A stretch of DNA of 63,193 nt from Chloroflexota bacterium (lineage in GTDB: Bacteria; Chloroflexota; UBA11872; VXNJ01). This document shows positions 49,801-63,193 of the stretch, piece after piece. The notes under the pieces are model-generated. The model worked only from the letters and a program-made list of their open reading frames with translations, did not search any database and was not told where the DNA came from. The stretch lies in assembly GCA_030744875.1 (NCBI GenBank), contig JASLPR010000030.1, forward strand, positions 1-63,193. Reading direction: 5' to 3'. Position numbers and translations under genes: made by a program. Position 1 is the stretch's first letter. Each line of letters begins with the position of its first letter.

Positions 49801-50295
49801 TTGACCTTCACCCATCTCGACGACGCCGGCCGCGCCCACATGGTCGATGTGGGGGGCAAACCCACCACTGTCCGCACCGCCGTCGCCGGCGGTCGCGTCT
49901 CCATGAAGCCAGACGCCCTGCAGATGGTCATCGACCAGGCCGCCGGGCGCGCCTCCGGGCTCAAGAAGGGCGACGTGCTGGGGGTGGCCCAGATTGCCGG
50001 CATCACCGCCGCCAAGCGCGCTTCCGAGCTGATCCCGCTGTGCCACCCGCTGCCGATCGACTCCATCGAAGTCGATCTTGAGCCGCAGCCCGAGTCCAGC
50101 TCGGTCCAGATCACCGCGCGGGTCACCACGGCCTCGCGGACCGGCGTCGAGATGGAGGCGCTGACCGCCGTCAGCGGCGCGGCGCTGACCATCTATGACA
50201 TGTGCAAGGCCGTCGACAAGGCCATGCGCATCGAGGAAGTCCGGCTCCTCAGCAAGACCGGCAGCACCAGCGGCGACTACCAGGCCGATGAATAG
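49801..50295 (+). CDS. moaC: cyclic pyranopterin monophosphate synthase MoaC
   Basis: THLD..G.A.MVDV..K, KKGDVL..A..AGI.AAK, LIPLCHPL, TGVEMEALT, YDMCKAVD. Confidence 0.96.
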   Translation: MTFTHLDDAGRAHMVDVGGKPTTVRTAVAGGRVSMKPDALQMVIDQAAGRASGLKKGDVLGVAQIAGITAAKRASELIPLCHPLPIDSIEVDLEPQPESSSVQITARVTTASRTGVEMEALTAVSGAALTIYDMCKAVDKAMRIEEVRLLSKTGSTSGDYQADE

Positions 50296-50348
50296 CGAAT
50301 TGAACCCCACGCAGTGTTCCGCAGCGGAGGCAAGGAGGAAGTACGTCT

Positions 50349-52847
<2,499 letters not shown>

Positions 52848-52861
52848 TCGCGGGCGGGCAA

Positions 52862-53575
52862 TTGGCGACGTCGGCGGGGCTGCCGGGAGATGTACGTCTG
52901 TGCCTCTTCGACCTGGACTACACGCTGATCCAGCTCATGCTCGATCCGGTCGGGGTCCACGTCGAGGTGCTGGAAACGGCCGGCCACCGGCTGCCGCGCA
53001 GGACGGTCCAGGCCGCCTACGACGCCGGCTGGGACGACTACCTGCAGGAAGGCCGGCGCTGGCCCTCGCAGGCCGAGGCTTACCTGCGGGTCGTCTGCCA
53101 CGGGCTGGCGGTGCTGGGGGTGGCCGACGCCGGTGATGAACTGGCGCGGCGCATCGACGCCCGCATCAACGACGTCTCCGACATGGCGGTCTACGACGAC
53201 TCGGTCCAGGTCCTGGAAGCGGTCCGCGCGGCCGGATTCCGGGTGGCGCTGGCCACCGGCCGTTGGCACGACCCGGTGCCCGATCTGGACCACCTGGAAC
53301 TGACCGGCTGCTTCGACCGCATCTACCACTCGGGCGAGTTTGGCCACCAGAAAGACGACGCCCGCTTCTGGGCGGCGCTGGTGGCCGACGCCGGGCTCGC
53401 GCCGGCCGAGATATTGCTGATCGACGACGCTCCGGATGCCGTCCGCGTAGCGCGCGAAGCCGGCCTGTACGCGCTGGCGATCCACCGCGCGGGCTCACCG
53501 TTGGGGCCGTTGCCCAACGCCGACCTGCGCTCGCTGCGGGCGCTGCCGCCGCTGCTGGAAATCGCCGGCGACTAG
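52862..53575 (+). CDS. HAD-superfamily hydrolase
   Basis: FDLDYTL motif I, LATG, K..., LIDD...V..A..AG. Confidence 0.85.
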   Translation: MATSAGLPGDVRLCLFDLDYTLIQLMLDPVGVHVEVLETAGHRLPRRTVQAAYDAGWDDYLQEGRRWPSQAEAYLRVVCHGLAVLGVADAGDELARRIDARINDVSDMAVYDDSVQVLEAVRAAGFRVALATGRWHDPVPDLDHLELTGCFDRIYHSGEFGHQKDDARFWAALVADAGLAPAEILLIDDAPDAVRVAREAGLYALAIHRAGSPLGPLPNADLRSLRALPPLLEIAGD

Positions 53576-55530
53576 CCCGGCGTGGCTCCGGCGCGCTTCA
53601 TGTAGACCATCAGCACGGCGATGTCGGCCGGGGTGACGCCGTTGATCCGCCCCGCCTGCCCCAGCGTCGCCGGGCGGACCCGCTCCAGTTTCTGGCGGGC
53701 CTCGGTGCGCAGGCCGCGGGCGGTCGCGAAATCGAACTCCGGCGGGATCGGGGCGTGCTCCAACTTGCGGCTGCGTTCGACGATGCGGTCCTGCTGGCGG
53801 ATGTAGCCGGAGTAGAGCGCCTCCATCTCGACCTGCGCCGCCGCCTCCCGGTCCACCGGCGGCGCGCCGGCCAATTCCCGCAGGGTGTTCAGCTTCATCC
53901 GCGGCCGTTTCAACAGGTTTGCCGCCGGGGTCGGCTCGGCGATCGGCGCGCTGTCGATGGCCCGCAGCGCAGCGGCGCTGGCGTCGTTGGCCGGGATGCG
54001 CGCCGCGTCCAGCCACTCACCGGCCGCCTCGATCGCCTGCGCCTTCTCGCGCCAGCGCCGCAATCGTGATTCGGAGGCCAGCCCGATCCGTTCCGCCACC
54101 GGCGTCAGCCGCAGGTCGGCGTTGTCCTGCCGCAGTCGCAGGCGGTATTCGGCCCGCGATGTGTGCAGGCGATAGGGCTCGTCGATCTCCTTGGTGATCA
54201 GGTCGTCGATCATCACCCCCAGGTAGGCCTGGTCGCGCCGGAAGGACAGCGGCGGCTCGCCGCGTACTGCCAGCGCGGCGTTGATCCCGGCCAGCAGTCC
54301 CTGCCCGGCCGCCTCTTCGTAGCCGGTGGTGCCGTTGATTTGCCCGGCCAGGTAAAGCCCCGTCGCCCGCTGCGTCTCCAGACTCCCGCGCAATTGCTGG
54401 GAGGGGGCGAAGTCGTACTCAATCGCGTAGCCGGCGTGGATCATTTCCACGTTGGCCAGCGCCGGGATGCTGCGCAGCAGTGCCAGTTGTACATCTTCCG
54501 GAAGACTCGTGTTGGCCCCCTGCACATAGACTTGGTTGGTGGTGAAGCCCTCCGGCTCCAGGAAAAGCTGGTGGGCGTCTTTGTCGGCGAAGCGCACGAT
54601 TTTGTCTTCGATGGAGGGGCAGTAGCGCGGCCCGGTGCTTTCGATAGACCCGTTGAACAGTGGCGCGCGGTGCAGGTTGGCGCGGATCAGATCGTGGGTG
54701 CCGGGGTTGGTGTAGATCGAGTAGCAGGCCATCTTCAGGCGTCCGTCGTGCCGCTCGGCTCCCGGGTAGACCGGATTCGGCGTCGCGCCGGCGATCTCGT
54801 CGGCGGGCACCGGGTCGAAGCTGAACTCCAGCGGCCTGGTCGAACCGGGCTGTAGCTCGGTCTGCGCGAAGTCGATCGTACGGGCGTCGATGCGCGGCGG
54901 GGTGCCGGTCTTCAGGCGGCCGATCGCGAAGCCGTGTGCGGCTAGGTCCTCGGACAGCCCCCGCGCCGGAGATTCACCGGCGCGCCCGGCCGGGTAGCTG
55001 GTGTTGCCGACGATGATCCGCCCGTTCAGGAAGGTGCCGGTGGTGACGATGACCTTTGCCCCCCGGAAACGCCGCCCCAGTTCGGTCTCCACCCCGACCA
55101 CCCGCCAGTCGTCACCGCCGCCTTCCCAGAGCAGCCCGGTCACTGAGCCCTGGCGCAAATCGAGGTTCGGCTGCCCGCGCAGCACCCGGCCCATCGCCCG
55201 CGCGTAAAGCCACTTGTCGCACTGCGCCCGCAGCGCTCGCACCGCCGGCCCCTTGCCGGTGTTGAGCATTCGTATCTGCAGTTGGGTGCGGTCGGTGACG
55301 CGCGCCATCTCGCCGCCCAGGGCGTCGATCTCGCGCACCAGGTGCCCCTTGGCCGGGCCGCCGATCGAAGGGTTGCAGGGCATCCCGGCGACGGAGTCCG
55401 GGTCCATGGTCAGCAGCAGGGTGCGCGCGCCGAGGCGGGCGGCGGCCAGCGCGGCCTCGCAGCCGGCATGCCCGGCGCCGACCACGATCACTCCGTAGCC
55501 GTTGCGCCCGCTGTCGCCGTCGGGAGTCAT
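53572..55530 (-). CDS. mnmG: tRNA uridine-5-carboxymethylaminomethyl modification enzyme MnmG (GidA)
   Basis: GAGHAGCEAA, MPCNPSIGG.AKG, RLKTGTPPR, GPRYCPSIEDK, GQINGTTGYEEAA.QG, SRAEYRL.LR.DNAD. Confidence 0.97.
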   Translation of the reverse strand: MTPDGDSGRNGYGVIVVGAGHAGCEAALAAARLGARTLLLTMDPDSVAGMPCNPSIGGPAKGHLVREIDALGGEMARVTDRTQLQIRMLNTGKGPAVRALRAQCDKWLYARAMGRVLRGQPNLDLRQGSVTGLLWEGGGDDWRVVGVETELGRRFRGAKVIVTTGTFLNGRIIVGNTSYPAGRAGESPARGLSEDLAAHGFAIGRLKTGTPPRIDARTIDFAQTELQPGSTRPLEFSFDPVPADEIAGATPNPVYPGAERHDGRLKMACYSIYTNPGTHDLIRANLHRAPLFNGSIESTGPRYCPSIEDKIVRFADKDAHQLFLEPEGFTTNQVYVQGANTSLPEDVQLALLRSIPALANVEMIHAGYAIEYDFAPSQQLRGSLETQRATGLYLAGQINGTTGYEEAAGQGLLAGINAALAVRGEPPLSFRRDQAYLGVMIDDLITKEIDEPYRLHTSRAEYRLRLRQDNADLRLTPVAERIGLASESRLRRWREKAQAIEAAGEWLDAARIPANDASAAALRAIDSAPIAEPTPAANLLKRPRMKLNTLRELAGAPPVDREAAAQVEMEALYSGYIRQQDRIVERSRKLEHAPIPPEFDFATARGLRTEARQKLERVRPATLGQAGRINGVTPADIAVLMVYMKRAGATPG

Positions 55531-56356
55531 GTTTCGATGCCCAGCCTTTCGTGGCCGCGACTACAATCTGCACAAGCCTATATGGTGGCCCAGTGTTTCG
55601 CGTGGGGGCAATATCGCGACTACCTTCCAGAATCCGTCGTCCGGGTCCGGCGCCGCCGAGCCACTGCGCGGCGCCCACCCGGTGGAGGCCTACGTGGTGC
55701 CGTTGCCCGACGGCGCGGCCACGTTCTTCGACCCGGACTTGGCTCGGCTCGATCCCGCCGCCGCGCCGCTGCGCCTGGATGTGCACAGCCCCTACGCGCT
55801 GAGCGACGGCGAACTGACTTATTTGCAGACCGAGTTCGAGGCGGCGATGGTTGAGTACGCCGAGCGCACGGCTGCCCGCGACCGGCCCTGGCGCCGGGCG
55901 GCGGCCATCGGGCTATTGGACCTGGTGGTGTTGGTAGGGCTGCTCCTCTTTGCATCGACCAACGCTGACCGTGCCTTTTTGATTTTCGCCTGGGCGTTCC
56001 TGCTTGCTTTGCTGCCGGGGCCCTTGATCGCGGTCCGGTTCATAGCGCGCCGGCGGCGGCAGGCGCGGGCCGGACGGCTGCAGAGGGCCGGCTTCGCCGG
56101 GGCGATCAGCGGCCAGGGCGGTTCCGGAACGGCGTTTGTGAAGGGTGTCTGGGACGGACTTGAGCGTGCCGGCGGCGACCGCGATCTGCTGACCCTGGAG
56201 CGCATCTGCCGGGTGAACAACTGGCCGGCCGGAGTGCGTTTCTACCGCTCCCGCCGCAGCGGTCGGGACCGGCCCGGTCACCGGGGCTGGCTGGGCTGGT
56301 TGGTCGGCGGCGGGCGCCCGCACTACGTCCCGGCGGTAGTGAGCCGCGCCCGATGA
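55502..56356 (+). CDS. hypothetical 2-TM membrane protein (orfA); true start probably ~55610
   Basis: Two TM helices and ATGA coupling to the next ORF. A TACAAT -10 at 55562 implies a later start. Confidence 0.7.
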   Translation: MRPLSPSGVMFRCPAFRGRDYNLHKPIWWPSVSRGGNIATTFQNPSSGSGAAEPLRGAHPVEAYVVPLPDGAATFFDPDLARLDPAAAPLRLDVHSPYALSDGELTYLQTEFEAAMVEYAERTAARDRPWRRAAAIGLLDLVVLVGLLLFASTNADRAFLIFAWAFLLALLPGPLIAVRFIARRRRQARAGRLQRAGFAGAISGQGGSGTAFVKGVWDGLERAGGDRDLLTLERICRVNNWPAGVRFYRSRRSGRDRPGHRGWLGWLVGGGRPHYVPAVVSRAR

Positions 56357-57117
56357 GAACCGCCACCTGCCTGGGGATTCCGGTGGTCGACGGCACGGTC
56401 GTGACGGCCACCTACGCCTCGCGGCGGCTGCTGGGCAACACGGCCTTCGCCGGAGCGGCGGTGACGGTGCAGGCGGCGATCGCCGCCGACGGCCGGGTCA
56501 CCGAGAGGGATCTGGAACATGCCTGCCGCCTGCAGGCCCGCCGCTTCCTCTTGCAGAGCGACGGGGTCACGGCCGGCTGGTCGCGGCGCGGCGGCGGGCT
56601 GTGGCTGGCTTTGCCGGGCATGGTGCTGGGCGTGGCGCTGATCGTCGCCTCGCTCGGTTTCTGGCTGCCGGCGGTGGCCGGGGTCTGGCTGCTGGCGTTG
56701 CGCCCGTGGCTGCTGATGCGGTTGCGTCGCCGGCGTCCCGCCGCGGTTGCCGAATCGCCGTCAATCGCAGTGCGGCGGGTCGCCCACCTGGGCATCGGTG
56801 CGCTGCGCGAGGTCATCGCCCGCAATCTCGAAGAGAACCTGGCTTACGCCGAGGCCTACGAGGTCAGCCGCCGGCTGGGAATCAGGGAGGCCGCCGACCT
56901 CTACACGAGCCTGCTGCTCGACCCGCGCCCGGCTGCACTAGCCCCGGAAGACGGCCTGTGGCTGCCCGACGCCACGACCGTGCGTGAGGTGCTGTCCGAG
57001 GCGCCGTTGGCCGGCGATGAAGGCCTGAAACCGGTGGAGCCCGAGATGGAGGCCATCGACGCCGAGATCCTCGACGCCGATTTTGAAGCCTCCGACGAGA
57101 CCGGGCCGGTGGCTTGA
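56353..57117 (+). CDS. hypothetical 2-TM membrane protein with acidic tail (orfB)
   Basis: Two TM helices; overlaps both neighbours. Confidence 0.75.
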   Translation: MRTATCLGIPVVDGTVVTATYASRRLLGNTAFAGAAVTVQAAIAADGRVTERDLEHACRLQARRFLLQSDGVTAGWSRRGGGLWLALPGMVLGVALIVASLGFWLPAVAGVWLLALRPWLLMRLRRRRPAAVAESPSIAVRRVAHLGIGALREVIARNLEENLAYAEAYEVSRRLGIREAADLYTSLLLDPRPAALAPEDGLWLPDATTVREVLSEAPLAGDEGLKPVEPEMEAIDAEILDADFEASDETGPVA

Positions 57118-58187
57118 TGCATGCCGTGGCCGACCAACCGCTGACGCTGCGCATTCCGCTGCACGACGACGCCTACGCGGTGCTGGCCGACGAGCGGCGC
57201 TGGCAGGAGGAGTTCGCCACCGTGCGCCTGCCCTACGAGCGGCGGGTGCTGGCCGAAAGCCAACTCGGCCCTCAGGCCTGGGTGCGGCTGACCATATACA
57301 CCATCGGCGAGGGCCGGGCCGGTGGGGTGGTGTGGATCGACCTGGCCTCGTCGCGGCCGAGCAGCGCCGAAATCATCACCGGCCGGGCGCTGCTGCGCGC
57401 CTTCGCCGCCGACTCGTCCGAGCGTCGCCGGCTGCTGTCGCGGCTGCTCCTGCACTTCGTGACCCTCGAATACACCGTAGACGCCGAGCGTCCAACCTGG
57501 CGGGTGCCGGCTTCCGGCGGCGGGATCGGCAGCGTGCTGGTGGGCGGGGCGATGAATGCCAACCCGGCCATCTGGAATGCCCTGCGCGCCGACCTGGAAC
57601 AGGCCCGGCCCTCGATGGTGGTGGGGCTGCGCGACGCCGGCGGGGTACCCGCCGACGGTCGCTCTGACGGGCTGGTTACGCTGCCGGTGACACTGGGTGA
57701 TCTGCAATCGGTCCACCTGCTCGGGTCGCTCGACGCCCGCTGGCGCGACCGCTTCGGCCGCCACGACCCGCGCCGTGGCTATCGATGGTTTGCCGAGCGC
57801 TTCGCGCAATTGCCCGAATTACCGGCCAGTTGCTTCCTGTCGAGCTTCCTGCGCTTCGGCGACAACCGCACCCGGCACCGCTTGGTCCCGGATCGCCTCG
57901 AAGAGACCGAGCTGCCCGTCTACTACCCGAAGTCGCCGGCGGAGCTGGCCGGGCTGGCCGCCGCCGGGCTGATCCCGGTCTTCCCCGGGGTGTTCTGGGA
58001 CGTGTCGCGCTCCGACGGCGGCGATCCGCTGACGACCGCCGGCCATGCCCACCGCCACCTGGGGGCCTTCGGGCTGACCGCCCTAGCGACCGCCGACAGC
58101 CCGACCCGCCGCGCCAATTTCCTCCTCGCGGCGGCCGCCGCCGCGATCGTCGCCGCCGCCGGCGAGGCCGGGCCGAACGATGGCTGA
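57114..58187 (+). CDS. hypothetical soluble protein (orfC), possibly a degenerate M14 carboxypeptidase-like fold
   Basis: 357 aa, coupled to both neighbours. Weak pattern similarity only (RPSMVVGLRD versus RP..V.DLH). Confidence 0.65.
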   Translation: MMHAVADQPLTLRIPLHDDAYAVLADERRWQEEFATVRLPYERRVLAESQLGPQAWVRLTIYTIGEGRAGGVVWIDLASSRPSSAEIITGRALLRAFAADSSERRRLLSRLLLHFVTLEYTVDAERPTWRVPASGGGIGSVLVGGAMNANPAIWNALRADLEQARPSMVVGLRDAGGVPADGRSDGLVTLPVTLGDLQSVHLLGSLDARWRDRFGRHDPRRGYRWFAERFAQLPELPASCFLSSFLRFGDNRTRHRLVPDRLEETELPVYYPKSPAELAGLAAAGLIPVFPGVFWDVSRSDGGDPLTTAGHAHRHLGAFGLTALATADSPTRRANFLLAAAAAAIVAAAGEAGPNDG

Positions 58188-59808
58188 GCGCCCGCCCGAA
58201 GAAAACCGCGAAGACCCTTTTGACCTTGAGATTGAGCCGATTGATGCCGAGGTCGTTGACCTGGACGACGCGCCGATCGCCGCCGAACCGGACGACCCGG
58301 CGCAGTTCGCTCCCGGCGGCGAGCCCGAAGCCGCCCCGCCGCCCCCCCCTCTGCCGCGGGTCCAGTACGCCGAGATACCCGATCCGTTCGGCGAGGGCAT
58401 CCTGGTGGCCCACGACCGCCAGGCGCTGGTGGCGGCCATCGCCGCCGGCGACCCCCGACGTGGCATCCAGGCCGCCGACGACCTAGTCTGGTCGCCCGAA
58501 TCGCGGGTGCGTGACATTGAGGAAGCCGCCGTGGCGCAGCTGCGCGGGCGACGCGTGCGGCGCGGCGCGCGGTGCATCTTCTGGCGAGTGGTGGCGGTGG
58601 CGCTGCCGCTGCTGGTGGCGGCGCTGCTGGGCGACCTGGGCCTGCTGCTGCGGCTGATTCCGGTGGTCGGGCCGCCGGTCGGGGAATTCGTCGGATCGGC
58701 GGGGGCGTCACTGGGCGGGCTGCCGCTGGGCTTCGCCATCGCGATCCTACCGTCAATCTGGCTGTGGCGGCGCAAGAGTTCCGACCCGGACGATTACTGG
58801 CCGAAACTGCCCCGGCGGCTGCCCCGGAACTTTGAGTTCGTGCCGATCGAGCGCGACCTGGCCGGGTTCACCGCCGATGTCGAGTCCACGATCCAGGAAT
58901 CCCGGGAACTCGCTCGCGGCCGGCAGTCGGTGGCCGGTGCCGACGCGGTGCGCCTGGAGGAAGTGGTGCATCGCGCCTACCGCCAGGCCCGCCGCGCCGG
59001 TATCGACGTGGCGGCGGCGGTCTACCTGGACCTGCGCCGTCGGCTGCACGCGGCGGCGCGCCCGCCACCAAAACGACTTGGCTTCCTGACCGGCCGGCGC
59101 AACGCCGCCGAACTGGCCGATCTGCTGGCGCCCTACCGGCCAACCAACGCGCGGGCGTCGTCCGGGCTGGTCGGCGGCGCCTTCCGGGTGCTGGCCGGGC
59201 TCGTGGCGGCGTTGGCGATTTTCTTCCTGGCCGGCCTGTTTCGGATCGGCCCGACCGACTTCGAGGTCATTCGGCCGAACACCGCCTGGGCCTTCCCCGG
59301 CTCGCTGGACCACCTGGACGCCGGCGGGCTCTCTTGGATGGCTGTCGATGGGGTGGATGAGGCCAGCGCCATCCCGGTCTACGGCCCCGGTTGGTTCTGG
59401 GCCTGGCCGGTGCCGCTGACTCGTCGCGAACACGTGCCGACCACCGACCACATAGTATCGGTGCAGGCGCTGCTGGGCGCGCGCGACGAGTCCGGTTTTG
59501 ACACTCTCGAAATCGACTTTAGCTACCAGATCGAAGACGTGCGCGTCTGGGTGAGCCGCGGGTCGAACGCCCGCGCCGAAGACGTCGTGGCCGACACGAT
59601 CGCGCAGAACCTGGCGGACTTCATTGAGGTGCAACGGCGCGATATCCAGTCGCGGCGGAGCGGCGTGGCGACCGAGATTCTCAAGGACAACATGACCGAC
59701 ATCCTCGAACGCTACGCCGGCGGGATCAACAGCGACGCCGAGATTCGTGCGCTCGGCATCCGCATCGAGACGGTTACCGATTTCGGTTTTGCCGTCTTCC
59801 GCCCCTGA
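58180..59808 (+). CDS. hypothetical membrane protein with C-terminal SPFH/HflK-like domain (orfD)
   Basis: Acidic N-terminus, TM pair, a third TM, then GPGWFWAWPVPL...V...L...D......IDFSYQIED (HflK/Band-7-like). Confidence 0.7.
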   Translation: MAERPPEENREDPFDLEIEPIDAEVVDLDDAPIAAEPDDPAQFAPGGEPEAAPPPPPLPRVQYAEIPDPFGEGILVAHDRQALVAAIAAGDPRRGIQAADDLVWSPESRVRDIEEAAVAQLRGRRVRRGARCIFWRVVAVALPLLVAALLGDLGLLLRLIPVVGPPVGEFVGSAGASLGGLPLGFAIAILPSIWLWRRKSSDPDDYWPKLPRRLPRNFEFVPIERDLAGFTADVESTIQESRELARGRQSVAGADAVRLEEVVHRAYRQARRAGIDVAAAVYLDLRRRLHAAARPPPKRLGFLTGRRNAAELADLLAPYRPTNARASSGLVGGAFRVLAGLVAALAIFFLAGLFRIGPTDFEVIRPNTAWAFPGSLDHLDAGGLSWMAVDGVDEASAIPVYGPGWFWAWPVPLTRREHVPTTDHIVSVQALLGARDESGFDTLEIDFSYQIEDVRVWVSRGSNARAEDVVADTIAQNLADFIEVQRRDIQSRRSGVATEILKDNMTDILERYAGGINSDAEIRALGIRIETVTDFGFAVFRP

Positions 59809-59814
59809 CCCGCC

Positions 59815-60582
59815 GTGGCTGAAGGCGAGCACCCGCGCACCGTCGGGGCGATCCTGCGCGGCTGGCGGGGGCAGCGCAACGTTTCGCTCAAGGAAATCGC
59901 CGGTCGCACGCGGATTCGCATGGACATCCTGCAGGCGCTGGAGAACGACAGTTTCGAGGCGCTGCCGGCGGCGGTCTACGTAACCGGCTACATCCGCGGC
60001 TGCGCCCGCGCGCTGGACCAGGACCCGGCCCCGGCGCTGGAGGCCTATGCTGCCCAGACGCGCATCCCCGGGGTGGAGTACATGCCCGATACCAACACGC
60101 CGATCGGCTACGACCGCCGGCCGTCGTTGCGCTCGGTGGGGTTGTTGGTGGCCACGCTGGTGGCGATAGTGGTGCTGATCAACCTCTTCGTGCGCAACTA
60201 CGAACCGGTGGAGGCCGGGCTGGCCGCGCCGCCGACGCCGGAGACGACCGCGACCCCGGCGCCGGATCCGACCGCGACGCTGTCGCTGATCCCGCCCTTC
60301 CAGACCCGCGAGTCAGAACCGATTGGGGATGTGGACGACCTGCGCTTTAGGCTCGTCGCCGAGATGAATGTGAGCGTGCAGGTCTTTATCGACGGCGAGC
60401 CCGTCTTCACCGGGTTCATGAACCCCGGCGAAAGCCGCGAGTGGTCCGCCGACGATTCGGCGCGGCTGGTGGTCAACGACGCCGGCGGCCTGCGGGTGGA
60501 GATCGACGGCACGTCGGTGGGGCCGCTGGGCAGGGTCGGCGAACGGGTCGAGCGCGAGTGGAGCAAGTCCGATCGCCCCTAG
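59815..60582 (+). CDS. RodZ-like helix-turn-helix membrane protein (HTH_25 + DUF4115)
   Basis: G.IL...R....SL.EI...TRI....L.ALE...F..LP..VY..GYI; one TM; C-terminal beta domain. Sits upstream of rimO. Confidence 0.85.
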   Translation: MAEGEHPRTVGAILRGWRGQRNVSLKEIAGRTRIRMDILQALENDSFEALPAAVYVTGYIRGCARALDQDPAPALEAYAAQTRIPGVEYMPDTNTPIGYDRRPSLRSVGLLVATLVAIVVLINLFVRNYEPVEAGLAAPPTPETTATPAPDPTATLSLIPPFQTRESEPIGDVDDLRFRLVAEMNVSVQVFIDGEPVFTGFMNPGESREWSADDSARLVVNDAGGLRVEIDGTSVGPLGRVGERVEREWSKSDRP

Positions 60583-60610
60583 CCAGGCGCCGGCGGCCGG
60601 CACGTTCTAC

Positions 60611-61990
60611 TTGGTCAACTACGGCTGCCCGAAGAACCTGGTCGACGGCGAGGGCATGGCGGCGCGACTGCTGGACGCGGGGTTGGCGCCGGCCGGGCCC
60701 GACGACGCCGACTACCTGATCGTCAACACCTGCGGGTTCATCGGGCCGGCTGAAGAGGAGTCCACCGACGCGCTGGCCGAAGTGGCCGGGACGAAACGGG
60801 AGGGCCAGCGCCTGATCGCTGCCGGCTGCCTGTCCGAGCGGCGCGGGACCGCGCTGGCCGGCGCGGTGCCGGGTATCGACGGCGTGCTGGGAACGCGGCG
60901 CTGGGCGGAGATCGGCGACCTGATCGATTCGTTCGCCACCATCCCCCGCCCGGCCCGGCTGGGCGTCGCGCCGGCGCTGGCCGACCCGGCTCCCCGCCTG
61001 ATCGGCGGCCCCAGCGCCTACGTGAAGATCGCCGACGGCTGCAACAAGAATTGCAGCTTCTGTACGATCCCCTCCTTCAAGGGACGGCAGATTTCGCGAC
61101 CGGTGGGCGACCTGCTGGATGAACTGGAAGCCCTGGCTGCCGGTGGGGTCCGCGAGGCGGTGCTGGTGGCCCAGGAACTGGGCTCCTACGGGCTGGACCT
61201 GCCCGGAGCGGGGGCCGGGCTTGTCGACCTGCTGGGTTCGATTCAGGACTCGCCGGGGCCGGACTGGATCAGGCTCATGTACCTCTACCCTTCGATGCTG
61301 ACCGATGAGTTGCTGGACGCCATCGCCGGGCTGCCGCGCCTCTGCAACTACATCGACGTGCCGGTGCAGCACTCGTCGGCGGGGGTGCTGCGGGCGATGC
61401 GCCGGCCGGCCGGCGCCGCCGGGATCGCCGGGCGCATCCGCGATGCCCGCCGGCGCCATCCCGACTTCGCCTTTCGGACCACGATCATCGTTGGCTTTCC
61501 CGGCGAGACCGAAGCCGACTTCGCCGATCTGTGCCGGTTTGTGGAGGAGGCGGCCTTTGACCACCTGGGCGCTTTCACCTACTCGCCCGAGGACGGCACC
61601 CCGGCCGTGACGCTGCCCGACCAGATCGACCCGGCTCTGCAGGACGAGCGCTACGCCCAGTTGATGGAGATCCAGCAGCGAATCGCGCGGCGTCGGCGCG
61701 AGGTCCGCGTCGATACCGAGATCGATGTGCTGGTCGAGGAGACCTTACCCGGACCGACGCTGGACGGCTACCAGGCGGCCGGGCGCAGCCGCGGCGAGGC
61801 CCCCGAAATCGATGGCCGGGTGCTGCTGGACCTGCCGCTGGCGGCGGGCCAGATTGTGCGCGCGCGGGTGACGGCGGCGCAGCCCTACGACCTCTTCGCG
61901 GCGGTGACCGGCTCGCCCGACGGGCCGCTGGCGCTGGCGGCCGCGGCAAAACCGGAGGAGCCAGCAAAGCCAGCGGAGCCGGACCTCTAG
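60611..61990 (+). CDS. rimO: ribosomal protein S12 methylthiotransferase RimO
   Basis: GCPKNLVD.E, VNTCGFI..A.EES, GCL.ER, YVKIADGCNKNCSFC.IP, WIRLMYLYP, IVGFPGET, TRAM domain APEIDG. Confidence 0.95.
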   Translation: MVNYGCPKNLVDGEGMAARLLDAGLAPAGPDDADYLIVNTCGFIGPAEEESTDALAEVAGTKREGQRLIAAGCLSERRGTALAGAVPGIDGVLGTRRWAEIGDLIDSFATIPRPARLGVAPALADPAPRLIGGPSAYVKIADGCNKNCSFCTIPSFKGRQISRPVGDLLDELEALAAGGVREAVLVAQELGSYGLDLPGAGAGLVDLLGSIQDSPGPDWIRLMYLYPSMLTDELLDAIAGLPRLCNYIDVPVQHSSAGVLRAMRRPAGAAGIAGRIRDARRRHPDFAFRTTIIVGFPGETEADFADLCRFVEEAAFDHLGAFTYSPEDGTPAVTLPDQIDPALQDERYAQLMEIQQRIARRRREVRVDTEIDVLVEETLPGPTLDGYQAAGRSRGEAPEIDGRVLLDLPLAAGQIVRARVTAAQPYDLFAAVTGSPDGPLALAAAAKPEEPAKPAEPDL

Positions 61991-62835
61991 GGGTACTCGC
62001 GCAGCGGCGGGGTGTTGGGCGGGCCGGCGGGCTCGTCTTTGCGCATTACCGCCTGGATTTTATGGGTCACCGAGTCAACCAGTTGTACCGACATCCCGCC
62101 GTCGACCGGCAGGGCGACGCCGGTGACGAAGGCGGCGTCGTCGGAGACCAGGTAGCGGACCGCGGCGGCGATGTCGTGGGGACGGCCGACCCGGCGCAAC
62201 GGGTAGATGGCCTCATTTAGCTTGGCCTGCTCGTCGGTGCCAAAGGCGGCCGCCTCGCGGCGATTGGAAACGATGAAGCCGGGGCAGATGGCGTTGACGC
62301 GGATGTTCTCCGATCCCAGGTCGAGGGCCGACTGGCGGGTCAGGCCGAGGACGGCGTGCTTGCAGGTGTCGTAGACGACGTGCCGCTCGGCGGCCAGGAA
62401 GCCGTGCACCGAGGATATGTTGACGATGGCCCCGCCGCCGACCCGGCGCATTTCGGGCACGGCCAGCTTCATACCCAGCGCCACCGCGCGGACGTTCACC
62501 GCCAGGCCTTCGTCCCAGCGCTCTACCGTTTCCTCGGCCACCGTGCCAGTGCGCCCGACGATCGCCGCGTTGTTGACCAGGATGTCCAGCCGGCCGAACT
62601 CGGCGACGGTAGTGGTGACCATCCGCTCGATCTGCGCCGGCTCGGCGAGATCGGTTTCCAGGAACAGCGCGCGGTGGCCGTCGGCGCGGACGGCGGCGGC
62701 CAGCGCCTGGCCCATCTCACTCTCGATATCAGCCACTGTGACCGCCGCGCCGGCGAGCGCCAGCTCCCAGGCGACCGCGTGGCCGATCCCCTGCGCCGCG
62801 CCGGTGACGATCGCGACCTTACCGTCCAGACCCAT
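61987..62835 (-). CDS. SDR family oxidoreductase
   Basis: TGAAQGIG, NNAA, ISS, YDTCK, IRVNAICPG, VDGG. Confidence 0.92.
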   Translation of the reverse strand: MGLDGKVAIVTGAAQGIGHAVAWELALAGAAVTVADIESEMGQALAAAVRADGHRALFLETDLAEPAQIERMVTTTVAEFGRLDILVNNAAIVGRTGTVAEETVERWDEGLAVNVRAVALGMKLAVPEMRRVGGGAIVNISSVHGFLAAERHVVYDTCKHAVLGLTRQSALDLGSENIRVNAICPGFIVSNRREAAAFGTDEQAKLNEAIYPLRRVGRPHDIAAAVRYLVSDDAAFVTGVALPVDGGMSVQLVDSVTHKIQAVMRKDEPAGPPNTPPLREYP

Positions 62836-62972
62836 CGTGCCCCCTGTGTCTTGCGAGTTTCGTTGACTGTACCCGACCGCGCTGGCCGGGCATGCAGGAT
62901 ATGACGTGGAGGCAGGCGGCGCTAGAATCGGGCTCGCTTTGACGGCAACCACACAACAGGACGGGACGACTT

Positions 62973-63193
62973 ATGGGAGTACTGGATGGCCAGGTGGCGG
63001 CGATCACCGGCGCGGGTACCGGGATTGGCGTCGGGATCGCGCGGCGCTTCGCCGCCGAGGGCGCGACGGTGGTGATAAGCGCCTACAACAGCTTCGAAGG
63101 CTGTGAGGCGCTGGCGGCCGAGATCAATGCCGACGGTGGGTCCGCCCTGGCGCTGAAGCTGGACTTTCGCCAGGCGGCCAGCGCCCGGGCGAT
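62973..63193 (+). CDS. SDR family oxidoreductase, N-terminal part (runs off window)
   Basis: Manual translation gives MGVLDGQVAAITGAGTGIGVGIARRFAAEGATVV. Confidence 0.85.
   Translation, partial: MGVLDGQVAAITGAGTGIGVGIARRFAAEGATVVISAYNSFEGCEALAAEINADGGSALALKLDFRQAASARA

Follow-up and report, generated by a model that had tools for sequence, protein, structure and literature searches.

The window analysed here, a stretch of 63,193 nucleotides from a Chloroflexota bacterium (contig JASLPR010000030.1 of assembly GCA_030744875.1, positions 1 to 63,193), carries four mutually overlapping genes on its plus strand, orfA (55682..56356, 224 residues), orfB (56353..57117, 254 residues), orfC (57114..58187, 356-357 residues) and orfD (58180..59808, 542 residues and a stop), with rodZ directly downstream. 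Our best explanation, to which we assign about an even chance, is that the four genes encode a hetero-oligomeric SPFH-type membrane scaffold that probably works with RodZ. The evidence for it is a divergent SPFH domain at the C-terminus of D, the well-supported paralogy of A, B and the N-terminal part of D, a predicted A-B pair, and a gene order A-B-C-D-rodZ that, among six families sampled from one Chloroflexota class, is retained in five.

Searches of Pfam and NCBIfam with the window proteins gave no family for any of A-D. The first-pass annotation, made from the sequence without database searches, had likewise recognised no family; this holds for the two databases, but the annotation had missed that D has an SPFH fold and C an M14-like one. 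With A as query, the ESM Atlas gave best scores of 0.88, to unnamed clusters only, and a homologue search with D returned 12 proteins only, none of them carrying a name.

A divergent SPFH domain in orfD

The AlphaFold2 (AF2) model of D has a predicted local distance difference test (pLDDT) score of 77 overall, of 77-92 over residues 340-540 and of about 90 in a three-helix bundle. Residues 1-54 (58180..58341) form an acidic disordered tail with pLDDT below 50, whose length varies among orthologues. Residues 55-325 (58342..59154) hold the part that resembles A and B, consisting of a strand/helix domain, a hairpin of two transmembrane (TM) helices and the three-helix bundle, which is cytoplasmic. 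A third membrane helix, TM3 (residues 329-350, 59164..59229), is a helix in the AF2 model with a hydropathy peak of 2.33, and it anchors the last part, residues 351-542 with the stop codon (59230..59808), a divergent SPFH1+SPFH2 domain lacking wall and cap helices. In the model, a long helix runs into TM1, TM2 follows, and the beta-rich domain with its helices reaches the last residue. The hairpin contains an invariant GG motif (G179, G180), an invariant P191 and a nearly invariant L183.

Nearly all PDB chains that Foldseek returned for D are SPFH proteins (prohibitin, stomatin, HflK/C, flotillin and erlin), and ten of the chains have E values between 1e-4 and 7e-4 (8rrh_A, E = 1e-4; HflK/C 7vhq, E = 2e-4). 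Structure comparison with VIA gave 9o9z_A (Z = 11.0, 144 residues aligned, root-mean-square deviation (rmsd) 3.9) and 8rrh_A (Z = 10.7, 168 aligned, rmsd 3.2), values that only moderately exceed the Z of 7-8 typical of models without a true match. Residues 327-542 of D match residues 1-175 of the prohibitin chain, which comprise the anchor, SPFH1 and SPFH2, and TM3 aligns with the N-terminal TM helix of the prohibitin, HflC and QmcA chains from their residue 1 (model range 327/334 onwards).

The relationship is also visible at the level of profiles. Pfam Band_7 matches 5 of 18 D orthologues (best E = 4.8e-4), and the distant D relative P0040 reaches 22.2 bits for Band_7 at a cut-off of 23.6. 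When the D profile was compared with 1.84 billion representative proteins, 54 matches were obtained at E <= 1e-3; P0056, P0059 and P0064, found by this profile with E values from 4e-5 to 7e-4, have the HflK_N+Band_7 arrangement, and a second tier of the matches consists of full-length relatives at 17-24% identity. D itself has no match to HflK_N in Pfam, and a PDB sequence search with the D and C profiles gave nothing below E 0.47.

D stops at residue 542, in the last strand of SPFH2, and the structural matches end at about residue 175 of the 272-residue prohibitin chain; D orthologues extend at most about 20 residues further. In canonical SPFH proteins, the cage is stabilised by a cap helix together with a wall helix 44-189 residues long (PMC11260169, in part). 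It is thus well supported that a TM helix and a divergent SPFH domain make up the last ~210 residues of D, and equally well supported that the protein ends at SPFH2, without the wall and cap helices that close a cage. Because these oligomerising helices are missing, ring formation by D is an assumption. Hydropathy and charge counts place the N-terminus of D inside, followed by the hairpin, the cytoplasmic bundle and TM3; with the N-terminus inside and three membrane passes, the SPFH domain would therefore lie on the outer face.

Two observations concern the size of the open frame around D. Open frames of 1101 residues (G012:C1:903650-905215) and 897 residues (G040:C3:98437-99957, with 1 internal TGA) were observed in two genomes; they probably reflect read-through from overlapping same-frame upstream genes and not fusion, a later profile search giving 532 residues for G012.

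A, B and the N-terminal half of D as copies of one module

The first-pass annotation had noticed that A, B and D share one order of elements, and all of the listed elements were found. In each protein, a two-helix hydrophobic hairpin lies between K/R-rich stretches (residues 80-116 for the hairpin of B). Profile alignments co-register the N-terminal strands YVVPLPDG in A, LGIPVVDG in B and AEIPDPFG in D, which fit the motif [YF]xxxPxxxG, and the following helix, the hairpin and the basic stretch are likewise in register. The C-terminal helices (..WPAGVRFY in A, ..REAADLY in B and ..VAAAVY in D) share columns with the pattern A..R..G....AA..Y. For the helix after the strand, the equivalence that had been drawn is right in part: TEFEAAM of A aligns with RDIEEAA of D, but RDLEHAC of B is about six residues off.

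BLASTP among A, B and D gave nothing significant, and order-level profiles gave weak hhalign results (A-B, P = 9e-4 over 185 columns; A-D, P = 1e-2 over 199; B-D, P = 3e-2 over 57), with Prob values of 1.7-23% and reversed-profile nulls at P = 0.03-0.6. When the soluble domains were compared alone, five of six hhalign comparisons scored above all 25 column shuffles (z from 1.4 to 4.8). With distant orthologues in the profiles, the values became Prob 92.4% and P = 5.2e-7 over 196 columns for A-B, Prob 94.1% and P = 1.3e-7 over 199 columns for A-D, and Prob 34.8% and P = 4e-4 over 28 columns for B-D. After two further lineages were added, they were 95.9% (P = 5.7e-9), 93.6% (P = 2.1e-7) and 73.6% (P = 2.9e-5), respectively. 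As controls for these deep profiles, reversed profiles, which preserve composition and hydrophobic runs, gave P = 0.02-0.6, and comparisons with the unrelated C profile gave P = 0.06-0.6. The matches of A and B to D sit in the N-terminal half of D (profile positions 17-252), and in the distant lineages the N-terminal strand motifs of A and B are nearly identical. HHalign had been named beforehand as the check on the proposal of diverged paralogues, a lack of similarity counting as its refutation, and the last P values uphold the proposal for all three pairs.

These profile comparisons have to be weighed against chance resemblance, in which A, B and the N-terminal half of D would be unrelated and look alike through their hydrophobic hairpins and an Arg/Ala-rich composition at 70% G+C. 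Such a view fits the null BLASTP result, the order-level Prob values and the confinement of the B-D similarity to one helix. It is very improbable, in our judgement, once the reversed profiles are set against the forward P values of 5.7e-9 and 2.1e-7: the alignments are collinear over 190-200 columns and include both soluble domains, significance climbed as independent distant lineages were added, and the N-terminal strands of A and B come close to being one motif in those lineages. That A, B and D residues 55-325 are paralogous copies of one module is thus well supported by sequence profiles. In these comparisons A is the link between B and D, the direct evidence for B-D being one helix. In the module itself, which is also well supported, a tight membrane hairpin of two helices stands between a small strand/helix domain and a helical domain, both of them cytoplasmic.

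Outside the module, the acidic tails of B (57030-57117, EPEMEAIDAEILDAD) and D (58180-58290, DLEIEPIDAEVVDLD) have in common a short stretch in which acidic and hydrophobic residues alternate (BLASTP E = 0.014, 9/18 identical), and like tails occur in the f1-family orthologues of both proteins. Both tails may bind one partner through this short linear motif, or the likeness may be no more than low complexity.

A predicted interface between A and B

Modelled together, A and B gave an ipSAE interface score of 0.71 in three of three runs, while the best of three controls gave 0.00. Of 157 solved complexes, 116 attain the ipSAE mark, as do 2 of 215 mismatched pairs; these counts hold only roughly for this model because custom alignments, one per protein, were used. 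At least 78% of the contacts recur between runs, and the pLDDT of the partner is at least 66. In the modelled interface, a helix of A with the invariant residues S41, G43 and E44 packs against the N-terminal strands of B and the invariant H145 and G147, and the two hairpins are joined as well. No like complex has been solved, and the result is therefore not a memory of a known pair. The model supports the view that A and B form a pair. The hetero-oligomeric membrane complex suggested in the first-pass annotation thus gains support from the paralogy and from this predicted interface, and no known complex accounts for the set.

A non-catalytic carboxypeptidase-like fold in orfC

C was modelled by AF2 as a confident globular protein (pLDDT 84.7, predicted template modelling score 0.89). 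Among 48,161 chains compared with VIA, M14 carboxypeptidases came top, with Z scores of 15.2, 15.1 and 14.9, 230-233 residues aligned and rmsd of 3.5-3.9 (7eqx_C, Z = 15.2, rmsd 3.8, 233 aligned; 3ieh_A, Z = 15.1). Csd4 of Helicobacter pylori (4wck_A) scored Z = 13.2 (rmsd 3.4, 192 aligned), and other proteins of the zinc-exopeptidase fold rank after the M14 enzymes. The Foldseek match to 4a37_A (E = 9e-5) is in line with this result.

M14 enzymes hold their zinc through the ligands HxxE ... H and have a catalytic Glu. In 18 orthologues of C, the invariant columns are M2, W30, G65, R91, R95, W154, P166, R173, D174, R333 and A334, so that neither a His nor a Glu is invariant, and only M1, G65, P166 and A309 remain so when distant orthologues are added. 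The HxxE stretch is not conserved, as judged from the positions in alignment and secondary structure. None of the 18 orthologues matches a peptidase family of Pfam, a PDB sequence search with C found nothing below E 1, and the ESM Atlas gave no usable match. C has no N-terminal hydrophobic signal-like segment and, because of this, is probably cytoplasmic and away from mature peptidoglycan.

C was considered as an active peptidase and rejected on the missing invariant His or Glu, the unconserved HxxE stretch and the lack of peptidase Pfam matches in the 18 orthologues. The corresponding explanation of the whole cluster, in which C would cleave peptidoglycan peptides as an active carboxypeptidase like Csd4 or MpaA, with the membrane proteins serving only as its anchor or regulators and the system shaping the cell enzymatically, draws on the M14 fold with Csd4 among the matches and on the adjacent rodZ. 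We consider it very improbable, for the same residues are not conserved, no PDB sequence match was found, and C, lacking a signal-like segment, is probably cytoplasmic. The solubility of C, its M14-carboxypeptidase-like fold and its lack of conserved catalytic or metal-binding residues are well supported; C is probably a cytoplasmic, non-catalytic subunit of peptidase-derived fold.

Conservation of the cluster and its linkage to rodZ

D is present in 39 of 41 relatives. Seventeen loci were fetched from two families of the order and their genes located by tblastn. The order A-B-C-D-RodZ is intact in 16 of them, the seventeenth being cut off where its contig ends, and of the 16 loci that extend far enough, 15 have mnmG upstream of orfA. 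The gene rimO was found within the fetched flank of two of the 17 loci, as well as in a distant metagenome locus (L071), and is not a constant member of the cluster.

A profile of distant D relatives led to a genome of another family (G386) with the whole cluster A-B-C-D-rodZ, and to three metagenome contigs (L071-L073) on which the arrangements A'-B'-C'-D', B'-C'-D' and D'-rodZ-rimO were seen. A search of metagenome contigs with the single protein P0031 gave no match. On L073, the D-like gene at about 1540-2976 is split in two frames (1586-2650 and 2140-2976) and gives two hmmsearch hits, which represents either a frameshift in the contig or a broken gene.

At the level of the class, 81 genomes (G000 included) from six families were searched with extended profiles. 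A was found in 55 genomes, B in 55, D in 61 and the RodZ_C domain in 76. All genomes of families f1 (9/9), f2 (30/30) and f71 (1/1) have A, B and D. In f83 the counts are 5/14 for A, 9/14 for B and 11/14 for D; in f84 they are 9/9, 5/9 and 9/9; and in f3 they are 0/17 for each. RodZ_C was detected in 9/9 genomes of f1, 28/30 of f2, 1/1 of f71, 12/14 of f83, 9/9 of f84 and 16/17 of f3. The misses in f83 are weak evidence, because many of its genomes are fragmented and 70-89% complete. Example loci from f83 and f84 have A, B, C and D in order. An earlier impression that the cluster is confined to one order (families f1 and f2), obtained when phylum-level searches with order-level profiles returned C and D from those two families alone, was discarded as an artefact of sampling and shallow profiles, since the class-level search found five families. 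The A-B-C-D-rodZ cluster is thus a class-level unit, absent from one family that retains rodZ.

Of 62 D places, 57 have a same-strand RodZ_C match 480-1526 nucleotides downstream; these places belong to 56 of 61 genomes. Among the five exceptions, D is within about 650 nucleotides of the downstream contig end in G034 and G438, the RodZ_C match is on a different contig in G438, G426 and G435, and no RodZ_C match at all was found in G034 and in the single-contig genome G441. One genome of the same family as the window (G016) has two D copies (C18:275670-277121 and C6:652-2109), each with RodZ_C downstream, which may be a real duplication or redundant assembly (contamination 2%). The link to cell shape that the first-pass annotation had offered as a possibility now rests on this synteny, with rodZ directly downstream of D.

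The same linkage bears on the possibility that the cluster encodes an HflK/C-like regulator of FtsH in membrane-protein quality control, the adjacency of rodZ being gene order without a functional link. In its favour, the canonical proteins retrieved by the D profile and confirmed by Pfam (P0056, P0059 and P0064) are of HflK type, a TM helix precedes SPFH in D as it does in HflK/C, the HflK/C cage around FtsH is likewise built from paralogues as a hetero-oligomer (PMC11260169, in part), and several prokaryotic SPFH subfamilies are tied to FtsH (PMC2636767, in part). The suggestion of a quality-control role, also raised as a possibility in the annotation, gains a basis from the HflK-like SPFH domain of D. 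We nevertheless regard the FtsH explanation as unlikely: ftsH is absent from the cluster at every locus examined, D lacks the wall and cap helices that build the HflK/C cage, only one of the three paralogues has an SPFH domain, and rodZ is adjacent at 57 of 62 D places even though identity among D proteins falls to 17-24%. Adjacency across such deep divergence is hard to explain without selection.

As a further alternative, the cluster could be a module for envelope stress or membrane repair, its SPFH protein and small membrane partners recruiting a cytoplasmic effector to damaged membrane. The components are similar to such a system, since one operon combines an SPFH gene with genes for small membrane proteins and for a single soluble protein, and a comparison can be made with ydjFGHI of Bacillus subtilis, in which YdjI is the SPFH protein (PMC8581546, in part). 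We take this to be quite improbable, as Pfam and NCBIfam show no PspA/IM30 or NfeD match in A-D, the housekeeping position between mnmG and rodZ in nearly all genomes of five families is atypical of accessory stress islands, and PADLOC gave no match. The PADLOC search (0 defence families at E <= 0.1 for A-D) also led us to reject a defence-island reading.

Layout of the locus and neighbouring genes

Six plus-strand genes, orfA, orfB, orfC, orfD, rodZ and rimO, lie between the divergent mnmG and a minus-strand gene resembling short-chain dehydrogenases. A and B overlap by 4 nucleotides (ATGA), B and C by 4 and C and D by 8; the B/C overlap would be 1 nucleotide should orfC begin at ATG 57117. 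The gap between D and rodZ is 6 nucleotides and that between rodZ and rimO 28. The coordinates and the Pfam matches agree with the initial description of overlapping genes leading into a rodZ-like gene and rimO, and orfA-B-C-D are probably co-transcribed with rodZ. The rodZ gene (59815..60582, plus strand) encodes a product in which both Pfam matches, HTH_25 (E = 1.5e-18) and RodZ_C (E = 6e-11), pass their cut-offs, with a single TM helix at residues 102-130. It is followed by rimO (60611..61990, plus strand), of the ribosomal protein S12 methylthiotransferase family, with Pfam matches to UPF0004, Radical_SAM and TRAM_2.

On the other side, mnmG (gidA; 53572..55530, minus strand; Pfam GIDA, E = 7e-153) is a conserved flank outside the system. 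The divergent intergenic region of 151 nucleotides (55531..55681) is presumed to hold the operon promoter. A consensus promoter scan gave 0 sites, and a TACAAT hexamer at 55562-55567 was spotted in this region by eye. A terminator scan gave one terminator-like site, inside rodZ, a lower number than shuffled sequences gave, and Rfam gave 0 matches over 50000-63193. The G+C content of the stretch, as of the genome, is 70%, and the host genome has two MreB genes. Judged by eye from their translations, the open reading frame at 52862-53575 (plus strand) looks like a HAD-type hydrolase with an N-terminal DLDYTL motif, and that at 61987-62952 (minus strand) like a short-chain dehydrogenase with a TGAAQGIG motif.

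For orfA, the start at 55502 given in the first-pass annotation has to be revised. That start would run over the start of the divergent mnmG (55530), the orthologue alignments of A begin about 55-60 residues downstream of it, and the ESM Atlas holds, letter for letter, the 224-residue form of A that begins at the in-frame GTG 55682. For these reasons, orfA is more likely 55682-56356 than 55502-56356. Gene callers that take the longest open reading frame will over-extend orfA in a 70% G+C genome, and the same over-extension was seen at several orthologous loci.

Proposed mechanism and its weighing

In the scaffold explanation, A, B and D would form a hetero-oligomer through lateral packing of their hairpin modules. 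On D, the SPFH domains would stand on the outer face of the membrane, as those of HflK/C and FliL do, and would associate laterally into a ring or patch that delimits a membrane microdomain, while C would dock on the cytoplasmic domains as a non-catalytic adaptor. RodZ is the most likely client because rodZ is almost always the next gene; through RodZ, the MreB-directed wall-synthesis machinery could be reached, and the complex would place RodZ, or stabilise it, within one defined patch of membrane. Precedents exist for parts of this picture: the stomatin-like protein StlP organises growth zones and wall growth in actinobacteria (PMC11920096, in part), and rings of FliL around a membrane machine form without a coiled coil (PMC6426602 and PMC8794807, both in part). 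In its full form, with an open SPFH ring or patch that lacks coiled coils and is held by the A/B/D hairpins, a dead carboxypeptidase-fold C as cytoplasmic adaptor and RodZ as dedicated client, the proposal is tentative, and we would sooner doubt it than accept it.

A number of points weigh against the scaffold explanation. At the level of the domain, window D has no match to Pfam Band_7 (PF01145) even at E <= 1, its fold scores exceed the background of unmatched models by a moderate margin, and D lacks the wall and cap helices by which canonical SPFH proteins oligomerise. The host genome also encodes a canonical Band_7 protein elsewhere. The placement of the SPFH domain on the outer face is drawn solely from hydropathy and charge counts, the similarity of B to D spans 28-29 columns, a single helix, and the calibration of the A-B interface is approximate, as noted. 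At the level of the client, 16 of the 17 genomes of family f3, which belongs to the same class, have RodZ_C and none has A, B or D; since this family keeps rodZ without the cluster, RodZ works independently of it. One rodZ locus from f3 showed no match to any of the four A-D profiles and has unrelated neighbours. Lastly, the function as a whole is inferred from fold, synteny and modelling. The f3 example genome has a lower-G+C look and different rodZ neighbours, and the family is a natural comparison group for the contribution of the cluster.

SPFH proteins are present across every domain of life, and recent structures explain them as closed cages kept together by long wall and cap helices. 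If the four proteins assemble, they would be a second way of building an SPFH scaffold, in which a module shared with neighbouring proteins replaces the helices. The near-constant place before rodZ would tie a membrane-microdomain organiser genetically to the rod-shape machinery, a link open to testing; if the full proposal is true, this would be the first such organiser genetically hard-wired to MreB/RodZ elongation, specific to one Chloroflexota class. How membrane organisation is linked to MreB-guided wall synthesis is debated, and to our knowledge little of either has been studied in this phylum. The analysis also gives fold-level annotation to four rare gene families that have no Pfam or NCBIfam name.

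Comparison with known systems

M14 metallocarboxypeptidases, Csd4 included, share with C the alpha/beta/alpha fold over about 230 residues. C differs from them in having neither conserved zinc ligands nor a conserved catalytic Glu, in lacking a Pfam or PDB sequence match, and in its probable cytoplasmic location.

The flagellar stator-associated, stomatin-like FliL resembles D in having one TM helix before a periplasmic SPFH-like domain and no coiled coil (PMC6426602 and PMC8794807, both in part). The VIA score of D with FliL (6ahq_C, Z = 6.5, 98 aligned, rmsd 4.0) is no higher than chance resemblance can give. In FliL, a lone SPFH2-like domain occurs in a flagellar context, whereas D has SPFH1+SPFH2, an N-terminal module and no flagellar neighbours.

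The cages of prohibitin, stomatin, flotillin and erlin provide the best fold matches of D (also 9l3g_a, Z = 10.5, and 9o9u_a, Z = 10.4), and in them the anchor likewise stands directly before SPFH1. Their wall helices (44-189 residues) and cap helices are absent from D (PMC11260169, in part, for the cages). HflK/HflC, the bacterial SPFH3 subfamily, is like D in its TM helix followed by SPFH1 and SPFH2 (VIA Z = 9.1-9.6 with 7vhq_E, 9cz2_XA and 7wi3_D, 160-167 aligned), in forming a hetero-oligomer from paralogues, and in the outer-face SPFH domain, a placement that is predicted for D. The differences are that D has no HflK_N and no wall or cap helices and is extended N-terminally by 325 residues that include two further TM helices, that A (224 residues) and B (254 residues) share the N-terminal module of D and not its SPFH domain, and that rodZ is linked to the cluster, with no ftsH in the loci examined.

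In a 2009 survey, 12 prokaryotic SPFH subfamilies were distinguished, with links to NfeD or FtsH, and none is described in the available parts of that source with an architecture or operon like that of D (PMC2636767). SPFH-NfeD operons (QmcA-YbbJ, YqiK-YqiJ and stomatin-STOPP) resemble the present cluster in combining an SPFH gene with small membrane partners (PMC2636767, in part). D scored Z = 8.6 with QmcA (8z5g_A) in VIA, and at E <= 1 neither Pfam nor NCBIfam returned NfeD for A, B or C. The soluble domains of NfeD are beta-barrels, whereas those of A and B are predicted to be helical, judged from the AF2 model of the paralogous part of D. Literature on SPFH with RodZ or with Chloroflex* describes no such operon at the level of titles and abstracts. 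In SPFH-NfeD operons the partners are also unlike A and B in that the latter are, by the profile alignments, paralogous to the N-terminal half of the SPFH protein itself. The best reading of the cluster is thus a previously undescribed SPFH scaffold with a new architecture and new partner families.

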